Assembly (NCBI GenBank): GCA_045600225.1
Contig: JAZRXL010000040.1
Location: forward strand, 2,733 to 66,732
Direction of reading: 5' to 3'
DNA length: 64,000 nt
Source: Paludibacteraceae bacterium
GTDB taxonomy: Bacteria > Bacteroidota > Bacteroidia > Bacteroidales > Paludibacteraceae
Part shown: positions 6,650-43,569 of the stretch, in pieces
Layout of the letters: each line of letters opens with the position of its first letter
Position numbering within the stretch: position 1 is the stretch's first letter
Position numbers and translations under genes: made by a program
Notes under the pieces: generated by a model
Told to the model about the DNA's origin: nothing
Database searches by the model: none
The model's input: only the letters and a program-made list of their open reading frames with translations

Positions 6650-8482
6650 TTAGAAAGATTGCATTGAGTACAATTTTCGATATAAACCATCTTTCTTCAG
6701 AAGCTCATCATGAGTTCCTCTTTCCACAATCTCTCCTTCATGCAAAACGCAAATTTCATCAGCATTCTTGATTGTAGACAAACGATGGGCAATCACAATA
6801 GTTGTTCTTGATTTCATCAAATTCTCCAAAGCTTCTTGCACCAGCTTTTCCGATTCCGTATCCAACGCAGAGGTTGCCTCATCCAAAATTAAAATTGGTG
6901 GATTTTTCAAAATAGCCCTAGCTATACTTAATCGTTGACGTTGTCCTCCCGACAAACGACCACCTCTATCGCCAATATTCGTTTGGTAGCCATCTTCCAT
7001 TGCCACAATAAACTCATGGGCATTAGCAATCTTTGCCGCTTCAATCACTTGTTCCTCTGTAGCATTTTCAACTCCAAATGTAATGTTATTAAATACGGTA
7101 TCGTTAAACAGAATCGCCTCCTGATTCACATTACCCATGTAGGATCTTAAATCGTGCAAAGTCATATTCTTCACATTGACACCATCAATGGTAATCTCTC
7201 CTTCGTTCACATCATAGAAGCGAGGCAATAAATCGACCATTGTTGATTTTCCCGATCCTGATTGACCAACCAATGCCACCATCTTTCCCTTCTCTATGGT
7301 TAAGTCAATGTTTCTCAACACCCAATTATCCTCGTATTTGAAAGATACATTTTTATATTCAATCTTGTTTTCAAAAGGTTTGGGTGCCACAGGATTCTTA
7401 ACCTCTTTTAAAGGGTTCACTGCTGTCAACACCATGTCTATACGATCCAAAGAGGCCTTACCTTTTTGAATGCTATACATCGCTTTGGAAAGTTCTTTAG
7501 CCGGATTAATAATACTATAAAATATAACTAAATAGTATATGAATTCAGCAGCAGACAACGAGCTGTTATCATTTAGAATGAGCATACCACCAAAGAACAA
7601 GACTACCGCAATGGTTGCTGTACCCAAGAATTCACTCATCGGGTGTGCTAACATATAGCGACGGTTCACCTTTGTTGTTGTCCTTCTCAAATTATCGTTT
7701 AAATGATGGAAATTCTTTCCTACCGATTTTTCTGCATTGAACGCTTTAATTACTCTCAAGCCCCCCAATGTCTCCTCTATTTGAGATAACAGTTGGCCAG
7801 ATTGTTCTTGTGCTGTTTTCGACTGTCTCTTCAACGACTTACCCACTCTACCCATAACAAAGCCGGCGAATGGAAGCACAGCCAACACAAAAAGAGTGAG
7901 TTTCCAACTTAACAATAAGAGAATACATAGATAGATAACAATCATAATTGGGTTTTTGGACAACAATTCGATGGAACTCATAATAGAAGCTTCCACCTCA
8001 TTCACATCCCCCATCATACGGGCCATAATATCGCCCTTCTTCTGTCTACTGAAGAACCCTAAATTCAGATCAACCACCTTCTCATAGAGTTGGTTACGCA
8101 TATCGCGCACCAACCCTGTTCGAAGAGGTATGATAAAATAACTTGCCAAATAGGCAACTCCTGTTTTCAAAAATGTCGTAAACACCAAGAAGAAAGCCAA
8201 AAGCATCAATGTGCTTAAAGCTCCATGAACCTCAATATAATTTGCCACCCAACAATAGGCATTGTTCTTTATCACATCAAAGTTCCAAGAGAATGGCAAA
8301 TAGGTATATGTAACACTTTTCGTCTTAAACAAGATCTCCAAAATTGGAACGATCAAAGCAAAAGAGAAAAGGCTAAATATGGTTGATAAAATGTTGCATA
8401 GAACATTTAGAATGACATTCTTCTTATAAGGTCCTACAAACCTTTTTATCAACCTAATGAACTGAGGTTCCGAAATATTCAT
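6650..8482 (-). CDS. ABC transporter permease/ATP-binding protein, MsbA-like exporter
   Basis: 610 aa with an N-terminal 6-TM exporter domain. Walker A GQSGSGKST, signature LSGGQRQR, Walker B ILILDEATSALD. Confidence 0.9.
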   Translation of the reverse strand: MNISEPQFIRLIKRFVGPYKKNVILNVLCNILSTIFSLFSFALIVPILEILFKTKSVTYTYLPFSWNFDVIKNNAYCWVANYIEVHGALSTLMLLAFFLVFTTFLKTGVAYLASYFIIPLRTGLVRDMRNQLYEKVVDLNLGFFSRQKKGDIMARMMGDVNEVEASIMSSIELLSKNPIMIVIYLCILLLLSWKLTLFVLAVLPFAGFVMGRVGKSLKRQSKTAQEQSGQLLSQIEETLGGLRVIKAFNAEKSVGKNFHHLNDNLRRTTTKVNRRYMLAHPMSEFLGTATIAVVLFFGGMLILNDNSSLSAAEFIYYLVIFYSIINPAKELSKAMYSIQKGKASLDRIDMVLTAVNPLKEVKNPVAPKPFENKIEYKNVSFKYEDNWVLRNIDLTIEKGKMVALVGQSGSGKSTMVDLLPRFYDVNEGEITIDGVNVKNMTLHDLRSYMGNVNQEAILFNDTVFNNITFGVENATEEQVIEAAKIANAHEFIVAMEDGYQTNIGDRGGRLSGGQRQRLSIARAILKNPPILILDEATSALDTESEKLVQEALENLMKSRTTIVIAHRLSTIKNADEICVLHEGEIVERGTHDELLKKDGLYRKLYSMQSF

Positions 8483-8492
8483 TCGTATGGTA

Positions 8493-9836
8493 TTACATTC
8501 CTGTATAATTGTGAGGAGTAATTGCTCTCAACTCGTTCTTTACAGACTCGCTTACATTCAAAGTCTCGATGAAATCCTTGATCGACTTCTCTGTGATACC
8601 TTCATTGGTACGGGTCAACGCCTTCAATGTCTCGTACGGATTTGGATAACCTTCGCGACGAAGAATGGTTTGAATACCCTCGGCTACTACAGCCCAACAC
8701 TTATCCAAATCATTATACAAAGCCTTTTCATTCAACAACAGCTTGCCAATTCCCTTCAAAGAGCTTTGGATAGCAATGATGATATGTGAGAACGGAACAC
8801 CAACGTTACGCAAAACGGTTGAATCGGTCAAGTCGCGTTGCAAACGAGAGATCGGCAACTTGATTGACAAGTGTTGAAGGATTGCACTTGCAATACCCAA
8901 GTTTCCTTCTGCATTCTCGAAATCGATAGGATTCACCTTATGAGGCATAGCGGAAGAGCCCACCTCGCCGGCCTTGATCTTCTGTTTGAAATACTCCATA
9001 GAGATGTATTGCCAGAAGTCGCGGTTCATATCGATCATGATCGTATTGATACGGGTCAAGCAATCGAAGATAGCACCCAAATTATCGTAGTTGGAAATTT
9101 GAGTCGTCCACTGCTCTCTTTGCAAACCAAGGATATCATTTACGAAATGGTTACCAAATGCCTTCCAATCGTTTTGAGGGTATGCCACGTGATGTGCATT
9201 GAAGTTACCCGTTGCACCACCAAACTTAGCCGGCAACTGCATCTGCTTCAACTGGTTCAACTGAACAGTCAGACGGTTGACGAAGACCATGATCTCCTTA
9301 CCCAAACGGGTTGGAGATGCTGGTTGACCATGTGTCTTGGCCAACATGGCAATATCCTTCCACTCGTCTGCACGAGCCTGCAATTCGCTGATCAACTTCT
9401 CCAAATTAGGAACGTACACATTCTTGATAGCCTCCTTAATAGAATAAGGGATGGAAGTGTTGTTGATATCCTGAGAAGTCAATCCGAAGTGGATGAACTC
9501 CTTGAACTGCTGAAGGTTCAAGGCATCAAACTTTTCCTTGATGAAATACTCGACTGCCTTCACATCGTGATTAGTCACCTTCTCGATGTCCTTAATCTTT
9601 TGAGCATCTTCCAAAGAGAAGTTCTTGTAGATCTCTCTCAAAGCGGCGAACTTCGAAGAATCAAAATCCTTCAAGTTAGGGAGAGGCAAGTCGCACAATG
9701 CGATGAAATACTCTACCTCAACCAGCACCCTGTAACGGATAAGTGCGAATTCTGAAAAATACTCGGCCAAAGCCTCCGATTTGCTTCTGTATCTTCCGTC
9801 TACCGGAGAGATGGCAGTCAATGCATTCAATTCCAT
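8493..9836 (-). CDS. purB: Adenylosuccinate lyase
   Basis: 447 aa. The N-terminus LTAISPVDGRYRSK and the SSAMPHKVNP signature are typical of the PurB/fumarate lyase family. Confidence 0.92.
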   Translation of the reverse strand: MELNALTAISPVDGRYRSKSEALAEYFSEFALIRYRVLVEVEYFIALCDLPLPNLKDFDSSKFAALREIYKNFSLEDAQKIKDIEKVTNHDVKAVEYFIKEKFDALNLQQFKEFIHFGLTSQDINNTSIPYSIKEAIKNVYVPNLEKLISELQARADEWKDIAMLAKTHGQPASPTRLGKEIMVFVNRLTVQLNQLKQMQLPAKFGGATGNFNAHHVAYPQNDWKAFGNHFVNDILGLQREQWTTQISNYDNLGAIFDCLTRINTIMIDMNRDFWQYISMEYFKQKIKAGEVGSSAMPHKVNPIDFENAEGNLGIASAILQHLSIKLPISRLQRDLTDSTVLRNVGVPFSHIIIAIQSSLKGIGKLLLNEKALYNDLDKCWAVVAEGIQTILRREGYPNPYETLKALTRTNEGITEKSIKDFIETLNVSESVKNELRAITPHNYTGM

Positions 9837-9898
9837 ACTTATTATGTATTCTTTTTTAATTATTTTCTAATTGAAAGGGCAAATTTACAAAATCATTT

Positions 9899-9945
9899 GC
9901 AAAAAGCAAAAAAAGTGGACCATCCACAAAACGGTGGACCACTTT
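9899..9945 (-). terminator. Rho-independent terminator after the 572-aa gene
   Basis: Hairpin AAAGTGG...CCACTTT with inner TCCAC/GTGGA pairing. On the minus strand it is followed by CTTTTTTTGCTTTTT. Confidence 0.6.
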
Positions 9946-9991
9946 AGAAGTTGTCTAGAAGTTCACAAAAAAAACTTCTTATTTGACTTTC

Positions 9992-11710
9992 CTATTTGTC
10001 AAGAACAGCACGAATACTCAAGCCATAGTATCTCATATTGTGTACAATTTGAGCGTAATGACCTGCAGAACCTGGTTGCAACTTCATACTGCCTGCAACA
10101 ATGGTACTCTCTTCCGACATGTCATTGGCCCAATAATATCCATATACTCCTACATAGTTATTGGTCGAAGTAGTACCAGTCATAGATGAACCTGCAGGGA
10201 AATATAACTTATTTCCGTTAGGTCCTACTGCAATATAAAGGTGGTTTGTTTCATCTCTTTCCCAAGTACACTCTTTTATCAACTCTTCAAAGTCAGCAAT
10301 AGAAGGCATGTGCCACTGACCACCCATCTTTACTCGTGCCACATCATCCGTCAAAGACAAGGATGTTTTCTTGTCAGACGAATTATATTTGCTATATTCT
10401 CCCTTTGCTGAATCGTAAGAGTAAGCATAGTTTGATCGAGAGAAATCTGCATCTTTATCTTTTCCCGTATTGGTAGTTTCTCCCCATGAGAAATACTCTC
10501 CGTAGTCAGATGGCGAACTTGCACCTATATTCGCAGTTGCCCACTTCTTTCCACTTTTCAATCCTAGATCCACATACGCGTAACCATTGTAACGGCATGC
10601 GTTTGATGCATCGTCAATCTCTGCCTGAAGCCTTTCGTTCTCTGATTTCAACTTTGCATTTTCATCAGTCAAACTCTCGTTCTTTGTTTTTAGTTCCGAG
10701 CCCTCCGATTTCAACTGCTCATTTTCACTAGTCAAACTCTCATTCTTTGTTTTCAATTCTGAGTTCTCCGATTTCAACTTTGTATTTTCACTAGTCAGAC
10801 TCTCATTTTTTGTTTTTAGTTCCGAGTTCTCTGGCTTCAATTGGTCATTCTCTGCTGTCAACGTAGAAATTTGCTTCTCGTATTCTGATTTGATCTGCTC
10901 GACTTCAGCAGATGATGTGCAATCATCATTTCCATACAGATCTTTTTCTGAAAATACCGGACGAACCATCATACCTATGTATTCCCAACCTTTCGTATCG
11001 TCAACTCCAGAAAACAAGCCTTTTGTCGTATATGAGTACGCAATATTTAAAGCATAACATTGGGTTGATGTCCAGTACATTCCGCATGGGAATTCGTCAT
11101 AGTGTTTAATTTTAGGATTTTCTTCATCATCTTGTGGGGTATAAAAAGGGAAGAAGATAGAATTTCCGTTGATTTTAGATGTGTACAAGAATCCAGAAAC
11201 CGATGACCCGTTGTAATTTTCGATCCACTCTTCAACACAATTATACATCAACTCTTCAAACTCTTCCTTCGTAGGCATTCTCCATGGTTTATCCAACGCA
11301 CGTCTTGCATGATCACTCTTTCCTACCAATATTCCATTCTCAATATTAGGTTCGCCATGTGTTGAACAATAGTTAGCCTTATTGAACTTTCCTTCATGCG
11401 CCCAATTTTCTCCCCAAGCATACAATGTTCCTTTTTCGTAAGGACGAGAGGCCCACAGGTTACTAACTGCCCACTTCACACTTAATCCTAAATCCACATA
11501 CCCCCATTGATCCAAGACAAATCCATTAGAGTCTTTACGCGGAACAAATCCTGTATAACTTGAACCTTCTTCGTAGGTAACACGTTTTACATTTTCCACA
11601 GAGAAAGTGACCTTCGTATTGTCAGAATTCTCTACTACCATCTGCGTATTAGCGGCAAACGCATTTACCAATGCAAATATCGCCAACACCGACATCACAA
11701 TTTTTTTCAT
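9992..11710 (-). CDS. Secreted protein with two FISUMP/DUF1566-like lectin-type domains joined by a repetitive coiled coil
   Basis: Signal peptide MKKIVMSVLAIFALVNAFA. Two copies of the pattern (V/K)KWAxxN(L/I)...Y(A/F)(A/S)WGE...W(R/H)MP(T/S)xx(E/D)FEEL...YW. Central ENSELKTKNESLTSEN repeats. Confidence 0.65.
   Translation of the reverse strand: MKKIVMSVLAIFALVNAFAANTQMVVENSDNTKVTFSVENVKRVTYEEGSSYTGFVPRKDSNGFVLDQWGYVDLGLSVKWAVSNLWASRPYEKGTLYAWGENWAHEGKFNKANYCSTHGEPNIENGILVGKSDHARRALDKPWRMPTKEEFEELMYNCVEEWIENYNGSSVSGFLYTSKINGNSIFFPFYTPQDDEENPKIKHYDEFPCGMYWTSTQCYALNIAYSYTTKGLFSGVDDTKGWEYIGMMVRPVFSEKDLYGNDDCTSSAEVEQIKSEYEKQISTLTAENDQLKPENSELKTKNESLTSENTKLKSENSELKTKNESLTSENEQLKSEGSELKTKNESLTDENAKLKSENERLQAEIDDASNACRYNGYAYVDLGLKSGKKWATANIGASSPSDYGEYFSWGETTNTGKDKDADFSRSNYAYSYDSAKGEYSKYNSSDKKTSLSLTDDVARVKMGGQWHMPSIADFEELIKECTWERDETNHLYIAVGPNGNKLYFPAGSSMTGTTSTNNYVGVYGYYWANDMSEESTIVAGSMKLQPGSAGHYAQIVHNMRYYGLSIRAVLDK
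10643..10831 (-). repeat. 3 x 63-bp in-frame tandem repeat (21-aa ENSELKTKNESLTSENxxLKS units)
   Basis: Read directly: units at 10769..10831, 10706..10768 and 10643..10705, with degenerate partial units flanking them. Confidence 0.85.
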
Positions 11711-11730
11711 TATCTTATCTTTTAATTTTA

Positions 11731-12204
11731 TTATTTACGAACGATTTTGAATGATAGAGTACCTATAGTCAAAACATAGACTCCCTTAGCCGATGGCAAT
11801 TGTAGTGTTGCTTCTCCTTCTGCGTTTGCCTCTACCAATGCCAACGTAATTCCATTCACACTGAACAATGCGATCTTCTCCGACGCTTTTACATTTTTTA
11901 TATTCACAATGTCTTCTTCCACATAAAACAAAACAGGGGCATCGCCAGAAACAATTTCCGACTTCACTGATCCTTGTGTTTCTTCTGTGAAACGATACTC
12001 CTTCACATCTGCAAAGGCATAAGATGTAGATGACTTCCCATTCACAACAAGTTGTGACTCATTGTAGGTAATCACAGGTTTTTCCGACAAGGCGAAATCA
12101 ATTGTCTTGCCAGACTTTAACTCAATCGTCATGTATGTTGTAGCCTGACTAGCCGACAAACATCCACCCAAAAGAGTTAAAGCTAATAAATGTTTGAAAT
12201 TCAT
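11731..12204 (-). CDS. Small secreted protein with a T9SS type A (Por) C-terminal sorting domain
   Basis: 157 aa. Signal MNFKHLLALTLLGGCLSASQA. C-terminus IALFSVNGITLALVEANAEGEATLQLPSAKGVYVLTIGTLSFKIVRK fits the Por secretion tail pattern. The stop lies 20 nt before the 572-aa gene's ATG, so the two look like one operon. Confidence 0.7.
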   Translation of the reverse strand: MNFKHLLALTLLGGCLSASQATTYMTIELKSGKTIDFALSEKPVITYNESQLVVNGKSSTSYAFADVKEYRFTEETQGSVKSEIVSGDAPVLFYVEEDIVNIKNVKASEKIALFSVNGITLALVEANAEGEATLQLPSAKGVYVLTIGTLSFKIVRK

Positions 12205-12247
12205 ATTTATAAATTTATGACTTATAATTTCTAATTTTTTTCGGTTG

Positions 12248-12255
12248 CAAAAATA
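12248..12255 (-). promoter_or_regulatory. -7 box TATTTTTG for the 157-aa/572-aa operon
   Basis: Plus-strand CAAAAATA is the reverse complement of TAnnTTTG, 44 nt upstream of the ATG at 12204. Confidence 0.5.
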
Positions 12256-12287
12256 ACAAAAAATCCTATAAAATTACCCGGCATTTC

Positions 12288-12301
12288 TTGATTTACATCA
12301 A
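12288..12301. promoter_or_regulatory. Perfect FNR-type palindrome TTGAT-TTAC-ATCAA
   Basis: Read directly. It lies 32 nt upstream of the -7 box, and a homologous site exists at 18790..18803. Confidence 0.5.
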
Positions 12302-12342
12302 ACAGTCAAAGACATTGCCACCGATTATACATAGGTATATTT

Positions 12343-12425
12343 CCCGTGGGCGTTACCATGGGCGAATGCAATTCGGTCCAATTGTGTACATTGTTTGCCA
12401 CGGGCGAATGCAATTCACCCCTACC
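12343..12425 (-). repeat. Two degenerate copies of the 42-bp hairpin unit (GGGCGAATGCAATTC...)
   Basis: ccatgggcgaatgcaattcggtcc and gccacgggcgaatgcaattcacccctac. The TAG stop of the 1304-aa gene (12421..12423) lies in the CCCCTAC part of the unit. Confidence 0.8.
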
Positions 12426-15400
12426 TAATTAACGCAAAATGTCCCGTATATTCCCTATCGATTTCTCTCAATTGGATGACATACCAATAATCTGTACTTG
12501 GCATCGGATGTCCGTTATAGGTTCCGTCCCAACCGTCGAACTCGTTATCTATCTCTATCAATAGTTTTCCGAAACGGTCGTAGATACTGACGGTATAGTA
12601 GTTGTAATAGTCCAAATTCTCCACCTCCCATAGGTCATTGACTCCGTCTCCATCTGGAGTCATTATCTCTGCCGGAATAATCTGAACCGCCAAAGAGACC
12701 ACCGAGTCTGCCTGACAGCCCTTTGAATCCATCACCTTCACCAACATCGGCGCTGGAGAGAACTTGGTAGGATAGGTATTCTCCATCTGCCATGGTTCTG
12801 TTCTCCAGAAATATTGGTAACCTGGCGTTCCTCCACTCACCTCCATCGCCAACCATTGGAACGCATCCTCATAGTAGACCGTATCGATCCGAGGATTCTC
12901 CAACACGGCAACTTCCACCGTAAACGAATCTTCACACACCTCGTCTGTCACGTTCACCCTGTAGGTTATATCCGCCACGCCCGCCATGGACGGAGTACTC
13001 TCATTCGTTGAGCTTAGATATGCCGACGGTGTCCACGTATAGTGCAGATTCTCGCAACAGTTTGGCTTGAATCGATAGGTTTCTCCTTCGCATATCTCTA
13101 CCGACACCTGCTCTTCCAATCCAAACTTCGGACGGGTATCTATACGCAACATTCGGATCGTATCATCCTTCAACGTACTCTCGTCGGTATAGTAGCCGTC
13201 ACCAATGTAGCTTCCGCCTCGCCAATCTACATAATGGTCGGGACATGGATCCACAAACAACGTGTCGTAGGTAAAGACATGCAGACTCAAATGCAACAGA
13301 CTATCGCAACCATAGATGGTTTGCTTCAAAAGTTCGTGCGTATAGTCACCCACATCCTTGTGAGTCAGGTTGAAGCCATGACGGGTAAAGAGGTCATTCA
13401 CCTTGACCGTATCGATCAAATAAGTATCCTTGGTCTCATGGACCGTCAACTGCAACGTCACGATACTATCACAGCCATGGATCGTCTTCAACTCATCCAC
13501 ATACGTACCAGCCACCGTATATGGTTTGCCTCCAAAGATAAACTCTTCTCCGTCGCAGATTGTATCGTGTACAGTTACATGGAAGGTATCATGCACAGTC
13601 AAATACAACGTCACAATGCTATCACAACCATAAATGGTCTTTAGTTCGTCAACATAGCTACCTGCCTTCGTGTAAGGATTGCCTCCGAAGATATATTCAT
13701 CTCCGTTGCAGATAGTGTCATAAACAGATACATGGAAGGTATCGTTTACAGTCAAATGCAACGTCACAATGCTATCGCAACCATAAATGGTCTTTAGTTC
13801 GTCAACATAGCTACCTGCCTTCGTGTAAGGTTTGCCTCCGAAAATATATTCATCTCCATTACAGATTGTATCCTTTACCGTCACATGGAAGGTATCATGG
13901 ACTGTCAACTGCAACGTCACGATACTGTCGCAGCCGTGGATCGTTTTCAACTCATCTACATACGTACCTGCCACTGTATATGGCTTGCCTCCGAAGATAT
14001 ACTCGTCTCCATCACAGATTGTATCGAGTACGGTTATATGGAAGGTATCATGCACCGTCAAGTACAACGTCACGATACTGTCACAACCATGGATGGTCTT
14101 CAGTTCGTCCACATAGCTTCCTGCTACTGTGTATGGATTTCCTCCGAAGATATATTTCTCTCCGTTGCAGATGGTATCATAGACAGAGACGTGGAAAGTG
14201 TCGTGCACCGTCAAGTACAAGGTGACGATACTGTCGCAACCATAAATCGTTTTCAGTTCGTCAACATATTTGCCAGACGTCTTATAGGTCTTTCCACCAA
14301 AGATGTATCGCTCTCCGTTGCAGATCGTATCATAGACTGAGACGTGGAAGGTATCGTTCACCGTCAAATGTAACGTCACAATACTATCACAACCATAGAT
14401 GGTCTTCAGTTCATCTACATATTTGCCTGATGTCTTATAAGTTTTTCCACCAAAGATGTATCGCTCTCCATTGCAGATAGTGTCATAAACAGACACGTGG
14501 AACGTATCATGCACAGTCAAATACAACGTCACAATACTATCGCAACCATAAATGGTCTTTAGTTCGTCAACATAGCTACCTGCCTTTGTGTAAGGTTTGC
14601 CTCCGAAGATATATTCATCTCCGTTGCAAATAGTGTCATAAACAGACACATGGAAGGTATCGTTCACCGTCAAATGCAACGTCACAATACTATCGCAACC
14701 ATAAATGGTCTTCAATTCATCTACATATTTGCCCGACTTTTTATAAGTCTTTCCGCCAAAGATGTATTGTTCTCCATTGCAGATGGTGTCATAGACTGAG
14801 ACGTGGAAGGTGTCCAATACGACCAACTCCAAGGTGACGATACTATCTCGTCCTGTGACAGACTTCAACTCATCCACGTAGGTATCCGCTTCAGTCAATT
14901 TCTTTCCTCCAAACAGATACTCTTCTCCCCTACAGATGGAGTCTACGATGGTCGTATCCAGTGGACCCAAAACATTCAGCGTCAGGCGTACTAGACTATC
15001 GCAACCGGCAGCTGTCTTGAGCGACAACTCATGCACATCGCTCGTAGTCTGGGAAGGCAGGTTGAATCCATGCTTCTTGTAGGTCTCTCCCATGCCAACA
15101 GAATCCATGATACCGACTTGATAGGTGGTGTCGACAGTCAGTGCCAACACTGTGGTATGTTTGCATCCGTTGCTACCCGTTGTCTCCACGCTATAGTAGT
15201 TCAGTCCGCAAGAGAGTCCGGCAGGAAGATCGAAGCCATGGCGTCCATACTCCTCCGTCTGGCAGATACGATCGCGCACAGTATCGCGGGTAAGTGGTAG
15301 GACATTCAAGGCAAGTGTCACCGTACTGTCGCATCCGAAAGCTGTGTTCAGATAGGCAGTGTCTTTGTAGACTCCCGCCGCCGTTGCCTTGATGGCGAAG

Positions 15401-16335
15401 CCGTTTTTATTGTAGTATTCCCCTTGGCAGACCTTGTCGGTCAGATTCGTCTTCTTATTGGGCATCACCACCAGTTGGAGGGTTGTGGTGACATCACACT
15501 CACCATTCTCACCTTTCAGTGTCTTTTTGTAGGTTCCGCTCCTTGTCGCCGAGAAACCGAACTTCTCGTAGGTATATCCTTCACAGATGGTATCCTTGAT
15601 AACGGTTGGTGTGGAGGTATTGACAATGATGGTCTTCTCAGCCTTAGCCTGACAGCCATAGTTGTTGGTAGCAGTCACCTCGTAGGTAAAGGTTTTCTTT
15701 GCCTCCTCCACAATCACGCGGCTAGTAGCACCTGTGTTCCACTCATAGGAGATGGTCTCGTCGTACTCTGTATCATCAAAATCTTTTACCAAGAAGAATG
15801 AATTTTTCTCCCTTTGACTTACCGGCTCGAATATTTTCCAAGTTTGAGTATAGCACCAATTATAGCCACTCCCCGCCTCCGTACTCGTTTGAAAGTCATA
15901 ATGTCCGAAAAGGAAATCAGCACTACCTCCCAAATAACCACGGTTGGCCAGCAAATGAAATATTTGCCCAACGGAAGGAACATACCAACCATTCTTGAGT
16001 GATGAAAAATAGGGGTATGCATTTTCATCCCCAGCCTCACGTAATGTCATCGAATTACCATACCCATCAAGATCACCCATCGCTTCTTCTAACGTTTCAT
16101 AATCAGGTAAGGGGCTATTATTATTTTCCCTATTAGAGAAAGCCGCTTTCACAATAGGTTGCTGATCATTGAAGACCCATCCGCTATTGCCATCTTCACT
16201 AAGATAAAAAATAATACCAGATTCACCATTTTCAAAGAAATATCGCTCTCCTAAAAAATGTCTCGCATTCATAGAGGAACAAATGAACCATAAACTAATG
16301 ACAAGGGCAATATGCTTACAATATGATTTGCTCAT
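12421..16335 (-). CDS. Large repetitive surface protein with an N-terminal DUF1566-like domain, about 15 Cys-containing 51-aa modules and a T9SS type B C-terminal domain
   Basis: 1304 aa with a signal-like N-terminus. GIIFYLSEDGNSGW...NGWYVPSVGQIFHLLAN. Repeats DTxCxGxxYxFGGxxYxxxGxYVDELKTIxGCDSIVTLxLTV. C-terminus IPAEIMTPDGDGVNDLWEV...IYDRFGKLL...WDGTYNG...YWYVI is the type B CTD pattern. Confidence 0.85.
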   Translation of the reverse strand: MSKSYCKHIALVISLWFICSSMNARHFLGERYFFENGESGIIFYLSEDGNSGWVFNDQQPIVKAAFSNRENNNSPLPDYETLEEAMGDLDGYGNSMTLREAGDENAYPYFSSLKNGWYVPSVGQIFHLLANRGYLGGSADFLFGHYDFQTSTEAGSGYNWCYTQTWKIFEPVSQREKNSFFLVKDFDDTEYDETISYEWNTGATSRVIVEEAKKTFTYEVTATNNYGCQAKAEKTIIVNTSTPTVIKDTICEGYTYEKFGFSATRSGTYKKTLKGENGECDVTTTLQLVVMPNKKTNLTDKVCQGEYYNKNGFAIKATAAGVYKDTAYLNTAFGCDSTVTLALNVLPLTRDTVRDRICQTEEYGRHGFDLPAGLSCGLNYYSVETTGSNGCKHTTVLALTVDTTYQVGIMDSVGMGETYKKHGFNLPSQTTSDVHELSLKTAAGCDSLVRLTLNVLGPLDTTIVDSICRGEEYLFGGKKLTEADTYVDELKSVTGRDSIVTLELVVLDTFHVSVYDTICNGEQYIFGGKTYKKSGKYVDELKTIYGCDSIVTLHLTVNDTFHVSVYDTICNGDEYIFGGKPYTKAGSYVDELKTIYGCDSIVTLYLTVHDTFHVSVYDTICNGERYIFGGKTYKTSGKYVDELKTIYGCDSIVTLHLTVNDTFHVSVYDTICNGERYIFGGKTYKTSGKYVDELKTIYGCDSIVTLYLTVHDTFHVSVYDTICNGEKYIFGGNPYTVAGSYVDELKTIHGCDSIVTLYLTVHDTFHITVLDTICDGDEYIFGGKPYTVAGTYVDELKTIHGCDSIVTLQLTVHDTFHVTVKDTICNGDEYIFGGKPYTKAGSYVDELKTIYGCDSIVTLHLTVNDTFHVSVYDTICNGDEYIFGGNPYTKAGSYVDELKTIYGCDSIVTLYLTVHDTFHVTVHDTICDGEEFIFGGKPYTVAGTYVDELKTIHGCDSIVTLQLTVHETKDTYLIDTVKVNDLFTRHGFNLTHKDVGDYTHELLKQTIYGCDSLLHLSLHVFTYDTLFVDPCPDHYVDWRGGSYIGDGYYTDESTLKDDTIRMLRIDTRPKFGLEEQVSVEICEGETYRFKPNCCENLHYTWTPSAYLSSTNESTPSMAGVADITYRVNVTDEVCEDSFTVEVAVLENPRIDTVYYEDAFQWLAMEVSGGTPGYQYFWRTEPWQMENTYPTKFSPAPMLVKVMDSKGCQADSVVSLAVQIIPAEIMTPDGDGVNDLWEVENLDYYNYYTVSIYDRFGKLLIEIDNEFDGWDGTYNGHPMPSTDYWYVIQLREIDREYTGHFALIR
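13438..14814 (-). repeat. 9 x 153-bp near-identical in-frame tandem repeats
   Basis: 1377 bp = 9 x 153. Each unit encodes DTFH(V/I)(S/T)V.DTIC(N/D)G..(Y/F)IFGG..Y....G.YVDELKTI(Y/H)GCDSIVTL.LTV(N/H). Confidence 0.95.
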
Positions 16336-16338
16336 TTC

Positions 16339-18666
16339 TCAAAAATGTTTAAATTGACGAATGGTTAAAGGAACAGCATCCCCAAATAAAAAAGTATGGA
16401 AATTAGGAATATTTAGATAATGAAAATAAGAAGTATTTGGAGTAATGCTCGAGGCCATAAAATAGTTTTCCGAATCCACATACATTTCACCACCTATCAT
16501 AGATAATGATTGATTAATCTTAGATAAATTTGCCATAACCGAATACATTTCACCTACTGCTGGAACATACCAACCATTATCAAAATCAACATCTTCAAAT
16601 ATATGGTATTTCAGACTTTTATAATATATATTATTTTCAATAATCTCCTGTAAAGTTGAAGACATCTTCTCCCCATCATTAAACGCGTCATTAAATAACG
16701 GTGCCGTGACGAGACCACCATGTAGATAAGAAAAAACCCGTTCAATGTATGGATTTCCCATTCCAGGATAAACACTTTTTGTAAGATTTGTGATTGCTCC
16801 ATGTTCTCCCGTGTCATCCAAATAAACAACCACGCCTTCTGCAGTCTTGTTGCTTTTTGCAAATTCATCCGGATGGAGAATCGTTCCATCCGTACAATAA
16901 ATGTCTCCCACCTTTATTCTATCATCCTCCTTTTTCTCGTAATCCAAACCTCCCTTGGCTGTCAGTTTTATCTCCTTGCCTTCACAAAGAACAGAGTCGC
17001 CATCCAAGTCAATACGCACCTTCACCTCGGGTGCCACTACAAGACTCAACACCACCAAACTATCACAACCATAGACGGTCTGCAAGTTTTTATTTCGAAC
17101 GATTTTTCCCTCCTCGCTAAGCGTTCCCAAATTAAAACCATACTTCGAGTATTTTGTACCAATACAAACCGTATCGAAATAAACCTTTTTGTAATTCTCG
17201 TGTACATTTAACTTGACACTTTGCGTTTTGGAGTTACATCCATTACCCGCAGTCAACGAAATTGTTTTTGTACCACTATCCTCGAAATCGAGACTCAATG
17301 TAGGCGAATATGAAACATGTTCAACGCCACCTTCCTTCCACTTCCACTGATAAGTAGAAAGATCCTCACCACCCTTAGCAATGAACACAGCAGGCTCTCC
17401 TTCACAAACATTCAAAGGTCCCTCTATCGTAGGAAAAACGGGTAGTTGACTCACAGTCAGACGTAACGTATAATATTGAGGATAACTCTCTCTACATGTT
17501 GTACACGGCAACGTGTCATAATAAGTTCCGACTGCAGGTTTGATGTATCTAAAACCATACTCTTCAAAACTTTCGCCCTCACAAATACCTTTTGAAATTT
17601 GAATATACGGTTTTTTACTATCCAACTTAATTCGTATCTTCTTCCCCACCTTAAAGGCACAAGTGGCAGGGTCGTAATAATTCATGATTACCTCCCTAGC
17701 TGCATCCGTAGGCAAAACAATTCCATCCACTTCATAAGAATCACCTGTCGTCACTGTCACCTCGTAATCTTCTGCTTTGATATTAGAAAGGGAGGTTATC
17801 ACTCCAACCAGCACGAACTCAGAGCCAGTAGCAGAACGGACAATACACGAAACAGAACTGTTCGTGGTATTCTTTGGAACTGTAGTGCTACGCTCCGTGG
17901 AACCGTTGCTCCACTTGTAAGAAGCAAAACCTTCTGGAGCTGAGAATGTCACTTTATCACTCTGACACCTTTCCACATAGAGTGTTTTCTCTATGCATTC
18001 TGCCGTAAAATAGGCGTATGCGAAATGCTCAAAAGCACCACAGTCGTAGGTGGAAATGCGTATTTGGACTTCTTGCCCCACTTTGGAAGATAAATCCACT
18101 CCCATGCTCGACCAATCACACCAAATAATACTGCTTCCCAGCTTTCCCTTTTGAGCAGATGTGTGAAAACCAGCGGCATTGGCGCTGGCATAGACGTCGT
18201 AACTAGAATTGTCATTGATCAATCTGCCACTCACATCCAACACCTGAAGGTTGAAGCGTGGCTGTTCGTCCTTGGCGTGCCCTGGATTCTCCATCACCAC
18301 CGCATAGCGTAGCTTCAATATAGGATTATCGGCATTCACCCTGAAATGGTAGACCAACACGTCTGTCTCGGCCTCAGCCAAATCATTGCCCAAGCGAACC
18401 ACACTCGTAGTTCCCTCTGGAAGCAACTTCAACTTGTTGTCTGTATAGGGATCTGTTCCTTGCGTGGAGATAACCGTGTGGCGACCCTCCACGACTCCCT
18501 TATCCTGCATCGGTTCCCAAGTACGACCGGTATATGCCTCTACATACGAGGCGCCCAAATTGGTCAAATCAGGACAACCATTATAGACCGTATATCCACT
18601 GGCCGAAAAAATAGTCGATAGTAATACTAATAAAACGAAAAACGTCCTTCTAAAATATGAAACCAT
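16339..18666 (-). CDS. Secreted protein with an N-terminal beta-rich domain, Cys-repeat modules and a C-terminal DUF1566-like domain; no recognisable T9SS CTD
   Basis: 775 aa. Signal MVSYFRRTFFVLLVLLSTIFSASG. Modules ICEGESFEEYGF... and VCIGTKYSKYGF...YGCDSLVVLSLVV. C-terminus EGVVVYLDDTGEHG...NGWYVPAVGEMYSVMAN. The stop is 3 nt before the 1304-aa gene's ATG. Confidence 0.75.
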   Translation of the reverse strand: MVSYFRRTFFVLLVLLSTIFSASGYTVYNGCPDLTNLGASYVEAYTGRTWEPMQDKGVVEGRHTVISTQGTDPYTDNKLKLLPEGTTSVVRLGNDLAEAETDVLVYHFRVNADNPILKLRYAVVMENPGHAKDEQPRFNLQVLDVSGRLINDNSSYDVYASANAAGFHTSAQKGKLGSSIIWCDWSSMGVDLSSKVGQEVQIRISTYDCGAFEHFAYAYFTAECIEKTLYVERCQSDKVTFSAPEGFASYKWSNGSTERSTTVPKNTTNSSVSCIVRSATGSEFVLVGVITSLSNIKAEDYEVTVTTGDSYEVDGIVLPTDAAREVIMNYYDPATCAFKVGKKIRIKLDSKKPYIQISKGICEGESFEEYGFRYIKPAVGTYYDTLPCTTCRESYPQYYTLRLTVSQLPVFPTIEGPLNVCEGEPAVFIAKGGEDLSTYQWKWKEGGVEHVSYSPTLSLDFEDSGTKTISLTAGNGCNSKTQSVKLNVHENYKKVYFDTVCIGTKYSKYGFNLGTLSEEGKIVRNKNLQTVYGCDSLVVLSLVVAPEVKVRIDLDGDSVLCEGKEIKLTAKGGLDYEKKEDDRIKVGDIYCTDGTILHPDEFAKSNKTAEGVVVYLDDTGEHGAITNLTKSVYPGMGNPYIERVFSYLHGGLVTAPLFNDAFNDGEKMSSTLQEIIENNIYYKSLKYHIFEDVDFDNGWYVPAVGEMYSVMANLSKINQSLSMIGGEMYVDSENYFMASSITPNTSYFHYLNIPNFHTFLFGDAVPLTIRQFKHF

Positions 18667-18745
18667 AAAATCTCTTTAAAATAGTGAGAAGTGAGACATG
18701 TGAAATGCAAAACGAGTAATTTCTGACTTCTATCTTTTTCAGTTA

Positions 18746-18753
18746 CAAATATA
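18746..18753 (-). promoter_or_regulatory. -7 box TATATTTG for the 775-aa/1304-aa operon
   Basis: Plus-strand CAAATATA, 80 nt upstream of the ATG at 18666. The flanking sequence is roughly 70% identical by eye to the 12243..12310 promoter region. Confidence 0.5.
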
Positions 18754-18774
18754 ACAAAAAAAACTTTTAATTTA

Positions 18775-18782
18775 CCCCCCCC
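18775..18782. repeat. C8 homopolymer (G8 on the sense strand) between the palindrome and the -7 box
   Basis: tttacccccccc read directly. An adjacent A8 run lies at 18756..18763. Confidence 0.9.
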
Positions 18783-18789
18783 ATAATTC

Positions 18790-18803
18790 TTGATTTATAT
18801 CAA
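18790..18803. promoter_or_regulatory. Perfect FNR-type palindrome TTGAT-TTAT-ATCAA
   Basis: Read directly, 36 nt upstream of the -7 box. Confidence 0.5.
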
Positions 18804-18820
18804 TGTAATTTACTCCTACA

Positions 18821-19236
18821 ATGTGCATTGTTTACCATGGGCGAATGCAATTCACCCCTACTGTGCGCATTGTTCAACATGGGCGAATGCAATTCGCCTC
18901 TACTGTGCGCATTGTTCAACATGGGCGAATGCAATTCGCCCTGTGCGCATTGTTCAACATGGGCGAATGCAATTCGCCTCTACTGTGTGCATTGTTCAAC
19001 ATGGGCGAATGCAATTCGCCCCTACTGTGCGCATTGTTCAACATGGGCGAATGCAATTCGCCTCTACTGTGCGCATTGTTCAACATGGGCGAATGCAATT
19101 CGCCCCTACTGTGCGCATTGTTCAACATGGGCGAATGCAATTCGCCCCTACTGTGCGCATTGTTCAACATGGGCGAATGCAATTCGCCTCTACTGTGTGC
19201 ATTGTTCAACATGGGCGAATGCAATTCGCCCCTACT
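18821..19236 (-). repeat. Tandem array of 10 hairpin-bearing units (nine of 42 bp, one of 38 bp)
   Basis: Unit GTG(C/T)GCATTGTTCAACATGGGCGAATGCAATTCGCC(C/T)CTACT. Unit boundaries at 18821, 18863, 18905, 18943, 18985, 19027, 19069, 19111, 19153 and 19195. Each has an 8-bp stem GGGCGAAT/ATTCGCCC and a 3-nt loop. There are no variable spacers. Confidence 0.95.
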
Positions 19237-20608
19237 CATTTCTAATTTCTAAATATTTTTCGATATTTTCCTCAAACCCCTTCACTCGTTTTTTGCTCTT
19301 ATTCTTCTTAAACCATTCAGACACACGAATTCGTTCGGAAAACTTCTTTCCCGCATCAATCGAACGACAACCCAGTTCGTTTTTTACAAGTGTCACTCTG
19401 TCATATAGACCCTGATCCGCACCAAACGTTTCGAACAACAGCGAATCGCCCACAAAAGAGATGCGTTGATAGTATCTGTCGTCCGTTCCCCATTTATCCA
19501 CATCACCCTTAAACTCCATGATGTAGTCCTTCTGAGAAGCATAGGAAACGACTCGCACGGGAGAATACTCATTGCCCAGCTTCATATTGCTCCGTGCATA
19601 CACATGTTCATGGCCCTGTAATACCAAATCGACTTTATACTTCACAACCAAATCATCGAAATAGTAGCGTTGGAAAAGGTTATTCATCGTACCTTTGGTG
19701 GAATGCAACGGATGGTGAAGCACTACAATCTTCCATTTTTCGGCCGTTTTATCCAACTCAGTTTCCAACCATTCCCTCTGTTTGGGCAACTTCCAGAAAT
19801 CCTTGTTGGAATCCAAGAAGAAGAAACGAGCATCTCCTTTTGCGAACGTGTAGAGCGCATTATCTGCATTTTGTTCCATTGTATTCAAGAAATAAGGGAA
19901 CGTCAACGGAAAGCGTCGTTCCAACGTGCGTGTCACACCTTTCAAATATTCATGATTACCCGCAACTGCCAGAATTGGATATCTTGTTGCAAACGTATCC
20001 AACGAACGGAACACCACGTTCCAGTACTGATCCATCGGACGTTCGATCAGATCACCACCAAACAGCAAGAATGAGGACTCTGAATTCGCCGCCATCACCT
20101 TAGGCAACAGCGTGTCAAAACCGCCATCCAGATCATCCTGCACATCCCCGAAATAGAGGAATGAGAAATCCTTGTTGTTATTTTTTATGAAACAAAACCA
20201 TTCCGTACTGTCCTTCTCCGAGCGTATTCGATAACACCAAACACCTTCTTCGTTTACATTCTTTATTTGCGCTCTATGAAATGCAGCCACGCCAGAACGA
20301 GAATGGTAAACCTCACACTCCGACGACAACGTAATCGTATCGGACGACCCTGGTCTTACATAATCCAGCCAACACGGATGCGGCAAGGAGTCATATTGCC
20401 ATGTTACATATCTCGACTCCGAATCATCCCCCATGGTAAGCAGAACTCGTGACGGATGGTGCTGAACATCGTAAGTTGGCTCAGGAGGATTACCAAACCA
20501 AGTATTCCATCGAACGACACACAATACGACGATAGCGATCAATAAACACGCAAAAAAAATCTTCTTCTTCATAAACAAAAAAGAGACGAAATTTGCACTT
20601 CGTCTCAT
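19232..20608 (-). CDS. Metallophosphoesterase (calcineurin-like / purple-acid-phosphatase-like)
   Basis: 458 aa with an N-terminal TM/signal segment. Motifs GDVQDD, GGDLIE, GNHEY, VVLHHPL and GHEHVY. Confidence 0.8.
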   Translation of the reverse strand: MRRSANFVSFLFMKKKIFFACLLIAIVVLCVVRWNTWFGNPPEPTYDVQHHPSRVLLTMGDDSESRYVTWQYDSLPHPCWLDYVRPGSSDTITLSSECEVYHSRSGVAAFHRAQIKNVNEEGVWCYRIRSEKDSTEWFCFIKNNNKDFSFLYFGDVQDDLDGGFDTLLPKVMAANSESSFLLFGGDLIERPMDQYWNVVFRSLDTFATRYPILAVAGNHEYLKGVTRTLERRFPLTFPYFLNTMEQNADNALYTFAKGDARFFFLDSNKDFWKLPKQREWLETELDKTAEKWKIVVLHHPLHSTKGTMNNLFQRYYFDDLVVKYKVDLVLQGHEHVYARSNMKLGNEYSPVRVVSYASQKDYIMEFKGDVDKWGTDDRYYQRISFVGDSLLFETFGADQGLYDRVTLVKNELGCRSIDAGKKFSERIRVSEWFKKNKSKKRVKGFEENIEKYLEIRNE

Positions 20609-25240: not shown

Positions 25241-25265
25241 TTCCAACTTTACAACCATATGAAAT

Positions 25266-25297
25266 GGGAGACTGAAGAGGTCTCCCATTTTTGTTTT
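25266..25297 (+). terminator. Rho-independent terminator after groEL
   Basis: GGGAGAC-tgaagag-GTCTCCC followed by ATTTTTGTTTT. Confidence 0.8.
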
Positions 25298-32764: not shown

Positions 32765-32774
32765 TAAAATTTCG

Positions 32775-33169
32775 TGGAGATGCAGGGGTTCGAACCCTGG
32801 TCCAAACGAGGAAATCATAAGCTTTCTACATGCTTATTCCTGCCTAGATTTTCGTACGATAGCAAGACCAGGACCACCAACTACCGTCTTATCCTCTAAA
32901 ATTTCATTTAGATATCGAGGCCTACCTAAACTATTCCTGAATTTTCCGCTCCTCCGTATCCGACCGCCTCAGGACTTAGCATCGGGGAGAAGTCTTGTCC
33001 AAACACCCGTGTCTGGATTAAGCCAGTAATCTACTATTATTCGATTAGGCAGCAAGAGCAAAGTTATTCTCGCCAGTTAAATTTTTGGTCTCCAAGATTA
33101 TAGTGCTAGCCACCAGCGCACTGCATGCTTACTTACCACTTCTGCCCGCTGTCAAATCCAGTCATCCCC
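32775..33169 (-). ncRNA. ssrA: tmRNA (transfer-messenger RNA)
   Basis: The 5' end GGGGATGACTGGATTTGACAGCGG pairs with the 3' end GCATCTCCA, giving an acceptor stem with G3:U. T-arm GGGTTCGAACCCC. The internal tag ORF GGC GAG AAT AAC TTT GCT CTT GCT GCC TAA encodes GENNFALAA (33044..33073). Confidence 0.93.
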
Positions 33170-43327: not shown

Positions 43328-43404
43328 TGGTGATCGAGGAGGGATTCGAACCCTCGACCCACAGCTTAGAAGGCTGTTGCTCTATCCAACTGAGCTACCC
43401 GACC
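43328..43404 (-). tRNA. tRNA-Arg (anticodon TCT)
   Basis: GGTCGGGTAGCTCAGTTGGATAGAGCAACAGCCTTCTAAGCTGTGGGTCGAGGGTTCGAATCCCTCCTCGATCACCA. It folds as a cloverleaf and the CCA is encoded. Confidence 0.92.
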
Positions 43405-43495: not shown

Positions 43496-43569
43496 TAGCG
43501 GGATCGAGAATTGAACTCGAGACCTCCGGGTTATGAATCCGACGCTCTAACCAACCGAGCTCTCCCGCC
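43496..43569 (-). tRNA. tRNA with CAT anticodon (Met; Ile2 or initiator not excluded)
   Basis: GGCGGGAGAGCTCGGTTGGTTAGAGCGTCGGATTCATAACCCGGAGGTCTCGAGTTCAATTCTCGATCCCGCTA. The cloverleaf folds with the CAT anticodon in the right place, and the CCA is not encoded. Confidence 0.8.

Follow-up and report, generated by a model that had tools for sequence, protein, structure and literature searches.

Ten probable GTAG-tagged REP elements in a head-to-tail array overlap a stop codon in a Paludibacteraceae genome

The stretch of DNA analyzed here, hereafter called the window, comprises 64,000 nucleotides (64 kb) of contig JAZRXL010000040.1 from a Paludibacteraceae bacterium (assembly GCA_045600225.1). 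Between a phosphoesterase gene and an operon of surface-protein genes it carries a tandem repeat of short hairpin-bearing units, referred to below as array A. This array is very probably a cluster of repetitive extragenic palindromic (REP) elements that carry a GTAG tag, are of the TnpA_REP subclass 2.4 type (equivalent to group 4 of the REP-associated tyrosine transposases, RAYTs) and have multiplied in place. The REP element itself is ordinary, and it is the length of the head-to-tail array that is unusual. Three features make the locus notable: the pure run of ten units, its overlap with a stop codon, and the combination of REP units with a promoter module that is present twice, at the border of a lineage-specific block of surface-protein genes. 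What had been an anonymous tandem repeat thus becomes a member of a recognizable element class.

Array A occupies positions 18820–19235 and consists of ten units that follow one another head to tail without spacers; the third is 38 bp long, the other nine 42 bp. This arrangement, first described in an annotation made from the letters alone (the sequence-only reading), was recovered by Tandem Repeats Finder (18825–19236, period 42, 9.9 copies, 94% matches, score 733) and by a repeat finder that returned start-to-start spacings of 42, 42 and 38 followed by six of 42. On the minus strand, which is the gene-sense strand, a unit reads GTAG, then GGGCGAAT-TGC-ATTCGCCC, then ATGTTGAACAATGCGCACA (19 nt). 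The REP portion is thus 23 nt long with its tag and folds into an 8-bp stem with a 3-nt loop, the remainder being a 19-nt tail. The tag precedes the stem in nine of the ten units and also in the gene-side unit of a second, smaller array in the window (array B). On the plus strand, every unit boundary reads CC|TAC or TC|TAC. The two recurring variants listed previously, CGCCCC/CGCCTC and GTGCGC/GTGTGC, were both found, but the perfect 8-bp stem ascribed to each unit was not: the stem is perfect in five units (hairpins at 18923, 19003, 19087, 19129 and 19213), the closing pair is broken in four others (CGCCTC), which leaves 7 bp and −8.6 rather than −12.3 kcal/mol as minus-strand RNA, and the distal unit has an internal C/A mismatch that becomes a G.U pair on the minus strand. 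Wobble pairs point both ways as to the functional strand: one variant allows a G.U pair when read on the plus strand, the other when read on the minus strand. With up to three mismatches allowed, the 19-nt palindrome GGGCGAATGCAATTCGCCC was found in the window only in array A and at 12360 and 12402; a shuffled-sequence control gave 0 matches. Each spacer between 18862 and 19235 also holds the 6-nt palindrome TGCGCA. In two-unit folds, adjacent spacers pair around a REP hairpin, with z = −3.6 for the plus and −2.4 for the minus strand, which means that alternative, larger structures can form in the array. The idea that the 19-nt tail is a decayed inverted REP arm was dropped because the resemblance is weak.

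To place the hairpin among known elements, one genome per species was scanned with GGGCGAATGCAATTCRCCYCTAC, the general form of the core pattern being GT[AG]GGGGYGAATTGCATTCGCCC. The exact 23-mer was present at no fewer than 119 genome loci (L001–L119) from about nine phyla or groups: Bacteroidota, Cyanobacteria, Vampirovibrio, Chloroflexota, Bacillota, Desulfobacterota, Ignavibacteriota, Pseudomonadota and Verrucomicrobiota. Three loci from Paludibacteraceae metagenome-assembled genomes (MAGs) are among the Bacteroidota matches listed; the genome of the window itself is not. The flanks vary by lineage, and the 23-mer is all that the loci have in common. When open reading frames (ORFs) from all six frames were compared by phmmer, a Y1/HUH transposase gene was found at 12 of the 119 matches listed, with the REP lying inside the gene in 10. 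These proteins carry the motifs MPNHIHGII, WQRNYYEHIIR and YIINNP, match Pfam Y1_Tnp and reach 78 bits against the NCBIfam model REP_Tyr_transpos (REP-associated tyrosine transposase), whose cut-off is 80. The published subclass 2.4 motifs are NH[IFV]H, WQ and YIxNNP (Quentin et al. 2018, PMC6006769). In several loci the sequence that follows the hairpin encodes ...MPNHIHGII..., and the REP is read in frame between the HuH and tyrosine motifs, as in HIHGIIRLLGRGELHSP; at locus L070, REP copies stand on both sides of the transposase gene. Such frame-keeping insertions of a REP into its own tnpA_REP gene were reported as unique to subclass 2.4 (Quentin et al. 2018, PMC6006769). The 23-mer lies inside or beside subclass 2.4 genes in Bacteroidota, Ignavibacteriota and a Rickettsiales MAG. 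At one locus, L114 (4851–5625), half a REP has been multiplied in frame inside a subclass 2.4 gene to give ELHSPENAN seven times, and similar cases occur at L058, L032 and L090.

The hairpin shows further signs of this element type. Variants that reside together with it have changed on both arms and kept their pairing, namely CGTAT/ATACG (17 times), CGGAT/ATCCG (5), CGTTT/AAACG (3) and CGCAC/GTGCG (3), and, in all, 227 of 253 have the five inner stem pairs intact. Because pairing is kept through such compensatory double changes, the stem is under structural constraint. At its foot, GTAG directly abuts the stem, which begins with three G-C base pairs (GGG...CCC), and the same combination, a 5' GT[AG]G and a stem base of three G-C pairs, is described for the canonical long REPs of subclass 2.4 (Quentin et al. 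2018, PMC6006769). Since anatomy, motifs and compensatory changes all match, the element was assigned to the GTAG REPs of subclass 2.4 type. The earlier description of the hairpins as REP-like is thereby sharpened, having missed the GTAG tag and the link to a transposase family. The phyletic spread agrees as well: subclass 2.4 is plentiful in Cyanobacteria and in Bacteroidetes, with scattered occurrences in other phyla (Quentin et al. 2018, PMC6006769), the corresponding RAYT group 4 is frequent in Cyanobacteria, Chlorobia and Caldilineae (Bertels et al. 2017, PMC5581495), and the 23-mer was found in Cyanobacteria, Bacteroidota and Chloroflexota among others. As a REP copy often lies inside the transposase gene, the two could be transferred jointly; the sequences suggest that core and transposase travel together, which could explain the identity of the 23-mer across phyla. 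This idea is not specific to the array A locus. A full-text literature search found no published mention of the hairpin sequence or its covariant form.

Several observations weigh against the assignment. No transposase gene was detected among the six-frame ORFs of the 64-kb window by phmmer, and only two sites with 12 units in all are visible there; the enzyme would have to be encoded elsewhere in the genome or to have been lost since. The 19-nt tail has no counterpart in the other genomes. Head-to-tail is a rare arrangement for GTAG REPs (Di Nocera et al. 2013, PMC3733652), and in the genome sample the 23-mer forms 37 inverted pairs (GTAG outside) versus 18 head-to-tail pairs outside the window. 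The one same-species contig that could be compared unit by unit ends inside the array, which weakens the copy-number comparison made below, and the RNA effects considered below would be carried over from work on E. coli. An origin from phage was also considered and rejected, as the unit-specific pattern CATTGTTYRMCAYGGGCGAATGCAATTC gave 0 matches in viral contigs (and 0 in JGI metagenomes) and the bare REP core just 18 in 2.9 million viral contigs.

The array does more than abut the phosphoesterase gene. The TAG of the tag of its gene-adjacent unit is the stop codon of that gene, an overlap missed by the sequence-only reading, which had placed the array between a phosphoesterase gene and the promoter of an adhesin operon. 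Homologues of the phosphoesterase end within about 6 residues of the stop supplied by the array, and the gene is therefore not truncated. Both arrays in the window donate a stop in this way, array B to a gene with a CHU_C type IX secretion sorting domain. Elsewhere, 14 of 157 REPs have a tag whose TAG ends an open frame that is 100 codons or longer, versus 9 of 314 control frames. GTAG REPs in general lie mainly downstream of genes, with a tag that often serves as a TAG stop codon, and were not found in Bacteroidetes in the earlier survey (Di Nocera et al. 2013, PMC3733652). Array A thus provides a clear Bacteroidales case in which a stop codon comes from a GTAG REP, together with an unusually long head-to-tail array.

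Reading frames within the array raise the question of whether the repeats encode protein. Four ORFs run through it, three on the plus strand (18790–19245, 18821–19252 and 18828–19415) and one on the minus strand (18916–19239), as was noted previously. The minus-strand ORF of 107 aa, in which MSRGELHSPMLNNAH is repeated, starts 5 nt ahead of the phosphoesterase stop codon, and the RGELHSP frame is the one read through where the REP lies inside transposase genes. The openness of the four frames is nevertheless explained by 42 being a multiple of 3 and by the sequence of the unit, and the frame shift introduced by the 38-nt unit ends the ORF. Moreover, none of the four translations has a significant relative among 5.8 billion proteins, and the array differs from strain to strain. 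We therefore give almost no credence to a coding function and consider the four ORFs spurious, as the sequence-only reading did. In Bacteroidales genomes and MAGs, similar repeats can accordingly be given a REP annotation in place of one as hypothetical proteins.

The history of array A can be partly read from array B, which escaped the earlier reading and consists of two decayed 42-nt units at 12341–12424. Each array is followed by a module of about 100 nt that occurs nowhere else in the window: the perfectly palindromic box TTGATnTAAATCAA, then TTTTTTGTTATnTTTGnAACnGAAAAA with TAnnTTTG, then TAnAAGTCAnAAATT. We take TAnnTTTG to be the Bacteroidota −7 promoter motif, and the TTGAT-N4-ATCAA box resembles CRP/FNR-type sites. 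From its sequence, the module may be a shared regulated promoter. Module B, the homologue of module A, stands ahead of a 157-aa gene (11731–12204); the genes behind the two modules (PKD, 775 aa, and this 157-aa gene) are unrelated. By local alignment, units 2 and 1 of array A plus its module are colinear with the two units of array B plus its module over about 190–215 nt. Because arrays and modules are colinear, the ancestral block is taken to have been two REP units and a promoter module. Units 2–10 of array A share derived states (TTCAACAT, CGCC[C/T]C) that are absent from unit 1 and from array B, and a motif of two variant units recurs five units apart. This pattern points to array A having grown in place, with the gene-side unit as its source and slippage or unequal exchange as the mechanism.

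Evidence from the same species comes from two short Logan contigs, both of which end inside the array. In L121, 98.5% identical over the gene, the array starts at the same stop codon with a different order of units, reaches a terminal-type unit as its third unit and is then cut off by the contig end. L120 (97.7% identical) breaks 29 nt into the array. Although it is a single short contig, L121 suggests that copy number or structure varies between strains. These contigs also bear on whether the count of ten, or the order of the units, is an artefact of assembling a MAG contig from short reads. The exact phosphoesterase protein is found on one NCBI contig only, and the ends of both Logan contigs indicate that short reads resolve the array poorly. 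However, three kinds of variant are distributed along the units in an order that is not periodic, which would be rare in a collapsed or expanded repeat, and a REP array sits on the same stop codon in two independent samples, even if these do not cover the count. An artefact is thus rather improbable, and the array itself accounts for the breaks that short-read assemblies of this species show here.

In outline, we propose the following. REPs of this type are short, non-autonomous hairpins whose single-stranded DNA would be bound and cleaved by a Y1/HUH TnpA_REP of subclass 2.4 (RAYT group 4), and the elements seen here would have been mobilized by such an enzyme of this genome. A 42-nt element, made of a 23-nt REP and a 19-nt tail, would have come to sit with its GTAG on the end of the phosphoesterase gene, its TAG serving as the stop. 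The ancestral block of two units and a promoter module would then have been present at the two places now marked by arrays A and B, and at A the gene-side unit type would have been amplified on the spot until there were ten copies. The likeliest route for this growth is slippage during replication or unequal recombination of near-identical units.

The units could also have been added by the transposase itself, a nick by TnpA_REP at C|T in CTAC freeing a 3'-OH that primes synthesis, and a second nick with strand transfer then adding one more unit head to tail. On the plus strand all unit boundaries contain the C|T core of the 'iREP II' site, where the E. coli enzyme cleaves C|T within CTAC, and in published amplification models units are expected to be added in tandem (Ton-Hoang et al. 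2012, PMC3333891, Fig. 7B/C). Short-period arrays with unrelated tails have also arisen independently (44 nt × 5 in Kapaibacterium; 43 nt × 4 and 39 nt × 3 in metagenomes), which fits a reaction that copies a REP plus the sequence up to the next C|T. On the other hand, the two-unit motif found five units apart resembles unequal exchange of several units rather than addition of single ones, the window lacks a transposase gene, and 42-nt repeats with 94–100% identity require nothing beyond slippage. The E. coli enzyme belongs to subclass 2.2 (Quentin et al. 2018, PMC6006769), and its cleavage specificity may not hold for subclass 2.4. Growth by the transposase is thus unlikely, and array A offers a natural substrate on which slippage and transposase-primed growth of REP clusters can be compared.

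Array A is longer than any other array that we found, which supports the sequence-only reading in calling ten copies unusual. In the genome sample, the next runs in length are those at L012 (Kapaibacterium; 44-nt period), with 5 copies, and at L001 (168-nt period), with 4. A scan of JGI metagenomes for close head-to-tail dimers gave four loci only, with 4 copies at most, the short-period arrays among them being those of 43 nt × 4 and 39 nt × 3. Ten copies is the longest run seen, in a comparison where short-read assemblies tend to break longer arrays.

Compared with published systems, the units share with subclass 2.4 REPs the GTAG at the hairpin foot, the three G-C base pairs and a 23-mer identical to copies beside subclass 2.4 genes, but that subclass forms inverted pairs or 'double-foot' arrangements, whereas the window copies run head to tail with a private 19-nt tail. 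With the GTAG REP superfamily (Pseudomonas GTAG-1, Stenotrophomonas SMAG) they have in common a short stem-loop with unpaired GTAG downstream of coding regions, the TAG of the tag as stop, and dimensions within the published range (20–40 bp, a 6–13-bp stem and a short loop). Clusters of tandemly reiterated units with some flanking DNA have been described in that superfamily, with head-tail dimers being rare (Di Nocera et al. 2013, PMC3733652); array A differs in being a pure head-tail run of ten. In E. coli, GTAG-footed hairpins are likewise clustered between genes, and CTAC cleavage and tandem amplification models apply, but in the bacterial interspersed mosaic elements (BIMEs) of that species REPs and inverted REPs alternate, and the stems are longer, bulged and of subclass 2.2. 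The alternation of REP and inverted REP with defined linkers that characterizes a BIME is absent from array A, which is purely head to tail, and so are the REPINs, two inverted REPs with a short spacer, since the window copies all have one orientation. Inverted doublets of the 23-mer REP do occur in other genomes, for example at L011, L023, L078 and L092. The subterminal hairpins of IS200/IS605 elements are also recognized on one DNA strand by a Y1 HUH enzyme, and their left- and right-end hairpins are co-oriented, like arrays A and B around the PKD and CHU_C genes; what lies between the arrays, however, is 6.4 kb of surface-protein genes and no transposase gene, and no defined cleavage tetranucleotides are known.

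A described structured noncoding RNA family was considered as well. The Gut-1 RNA motif (RF01706) similarly strings together short GC-rich hairpins, joined by AUG(C/A)AAU-like linkers, and cmscan gave a weak match to it (25.3 bits, E = 0.02). That score is half of the gathering threshold of 50, and the alignment is in a shifted register, where a 3' arm pairs with the 5' arm of the following unit across insertions of 18–25 nt, so that the hairpin is a different one. A permissive Rfam scan returned only this sub-threshold match and chance microRNA matches. As for a spacer-less CRISPR-like array, the units abut and have no unique spacers. Both interpretations are extremely improbable.

When the phosphoesterase gene is transcribed, the hairpins of array A would form the 3' end of its mRNA. 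They are not canonical intrinsic terminators, as had been stated from the sequence: a scan found 0 terminator-like sites in 18400–19500, and no hairpin is followed by a T-run, AUGUUGAAC being found there instead. Ordinary terminators with a hairpin and a T-run occur elsewhere in the window (25261–25291, 22156–22132, 9927–9915). E. coli REPs are reported to act as a barrier to 3' exonucleases and to attenuate transcription, and for BIMEs protection of mRNA 3' ends, binding of gyrase and IHF, and attenuation have been described. By analogy, the hairpins probably block 3' exonucleases and cause weak, U-independent attenuation. With the first stem starting immediately past the stop codon, they may possibly slow the release of ribosomes as well. 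Such effects would be by-products of the REP element, not the workings of a purpose-built switch.

A selected regulatory device would be a different matter, the array serving either as a hairpin insulator or attenuator between operons or as a copy-variable spacer that tunes the promoter 17–85 nt downstream. No other structured element lies between the stop at 19232 and the promoter module at 18735–18803, where no canonical terminator was found even though such terminators end other genes in the window. The layout of REP units followed by a promoter module is found twice, and the array differs between strains. Against such a device, array B holds the same position with two decayed units, so ten copies are not needed; half of the stems are imperfect, and one unit carries a 4-nt deletion. 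Relatives have a plain spacer of about 90 nt. Locus-specific covariation or conservation cannot be shown when close relatives are lacking and the next phosphoesterase homologue is 64% identical. We regard selection for such a device as quite unlikely, and the dedicated role as insulator, protein-binding platform or switch for the downstream promoter that the sequence-only reading had entertained is not supported, nothing indicating a purpose-built one. The array is better read as a REP cluster with probable incidental effects on RNA.

Table 1. Coordinates of the arrays, their units, the promoter modules and the adjoining genes in the window
Feature	Position	Strand	Remark
Metallophosphoesterase gene (purple-acid-phosphatase-like)	19232..20608	-	PF00149, PF16656; upstream of array A
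TAG stop of phosphoesterase gene	19232..19234	-	Supplied by GTAG tag of unit 10
Array A, ten REP units	18820..19235	-	GTAG, hairpin with 8-bp stem and 3-nt loop, 19-nt spacer ATGTTGAACAATGCGCACA
Array A, units 1–5 in register	18820-18861, 18862-18903, 18904-18941, 18942-18983, 18984-19025		
Array A, units 6–10 in register	19026-19067, 19068-19109, 19110-19151, 19152-19193, 19194-19235		
Unit 10, gene-adjacent	19194..19235	-	GTAG 19235..19232; perfect hairpin 19231..19213, -12.3 kcal/mol as RNA
38-nt unit (third)	18904..18941	-	Lacks 4 nt (CTAC/GTAG); shifts the frame and ends the 107-aa minus-strand ORF
Unit 1, distal, divergent	18820..18861	-	CCCATGGTAAAC type, GGGGTG stem; homologue of distal unit of array B
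Promoter module A, palindromic box TTGATATAAATCAA	18790..18803	-	TTGAT-N4-ATCAA; 17 nt beyond array A
Promoter module A, TTTTTTGTTATATTTGTAACTGAAAAA	18735..18761	-	Includes TAnnTTTG; putative promoter of PKD/CHU_C operon
PKD-domain surface protein gene (775 aa)	16339..18666	-	First gene downstream of array A
Gene with CHU_C type IX secretion sorting domain	12421..16335	-	TAG stop 12421-12423 in array B GTAG
Array B, two decayed 42-nt units head to tail	12341..12424	-	GTAG supplies stop of CHU_C gene
Promoter module B	12237..12301	-	Box TTGATGTAAATCAA 12288-12301; TTTTTTGTTATTTTTGCAACCGAAAAA 12237-12263
Canonical hairpin + T7 terminator after 572-aa gene	9915..9927	-	Far end of ~9.4-kb region

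All genes that neighbour array A lie on the minus strand (Table 1). The nearest named homologues come from Paludibacteraceae, Prevotella and Muribaculaceae MAGs and are about 41–43% identical, which marks the organism as a poorly sampled member of the Bacteroidales. In relatives (L144, L145 and L146; 57–59% protein identity), about 90 REP-free nucleotides separate the phosphoesterase gene from an adenylosuccinate lyase gene, which is followed by an ABC transporter gene; the equivalents in the window are at 8493–9836 and 6650–8482, respectively. Because relatives lack the region at the syntenic locus, about 9.4 kb (9837–19231), beginning with array A, is specific to this lineage. This block holds, in order, ten REPs, the PKD gene, the CHU_C gene, two REPs, the 157-aa gene and a 572-aa coiled-coil/Lcl_C gene. 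It amounts to two units of the form REP units, promoter module of about 100 nt and genes, and the PKD/CHU_C pair is bracketed by direct repeats of about 215 nt, each made of two REP units and a module.

Such an architecture could mean that REP blocks act as recombination or capture points at which surface-protein gene cassettes are assembled, a reading that we consider very doubtful. If a Y1 enzyme of subclass 2.4 did act on directly oriented REPs several kilobases apart, the locus would be a natural instance of the REP-mediated gene sequestration conjectured by Ton-Hoang et al. 2012 (PMC3333891), and the ten-unit array would be the trace left by tandem amplification that the enzyme had primed. 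The body of the PKD gene (16799–18594) is 94–96% identical to L148 (1100–2898) and L150 (8073–8680), whereas its first 72 nt are alignable at lower identity, roughly 55–60% by eye. These sequences suggest mosaic recombination or gene conversion among surface-protein genes. A clean translocation of the PKD/CHU_C cassette was discarded, as the first 72 nt, though much more diverged, can still be aligned and there is no clean junction. In L148 and L150, the copies stand behind a GH9 type IX secretion gene that has a normal terminator and no REP.

Elsewhere in the window, Rfam at gathering thresholds returned only a transfer-messenger RNA gene (32772–33169) and two tRNA genes (43331–43404 and 43496–43569), all on the minus strand. 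Two further tandem repeats lie within genes. The CHU_C gene contains nine copies of a 153-bp repeat, or three of 459 bp, at 13432–14811; the copies are about 80% identical and encode domain repeats, and the contigs of relatives break there. The 572-aa coiled-coil gene has three copies of a 63-bp repeat, or two of 126 bp, at 10637–10888.

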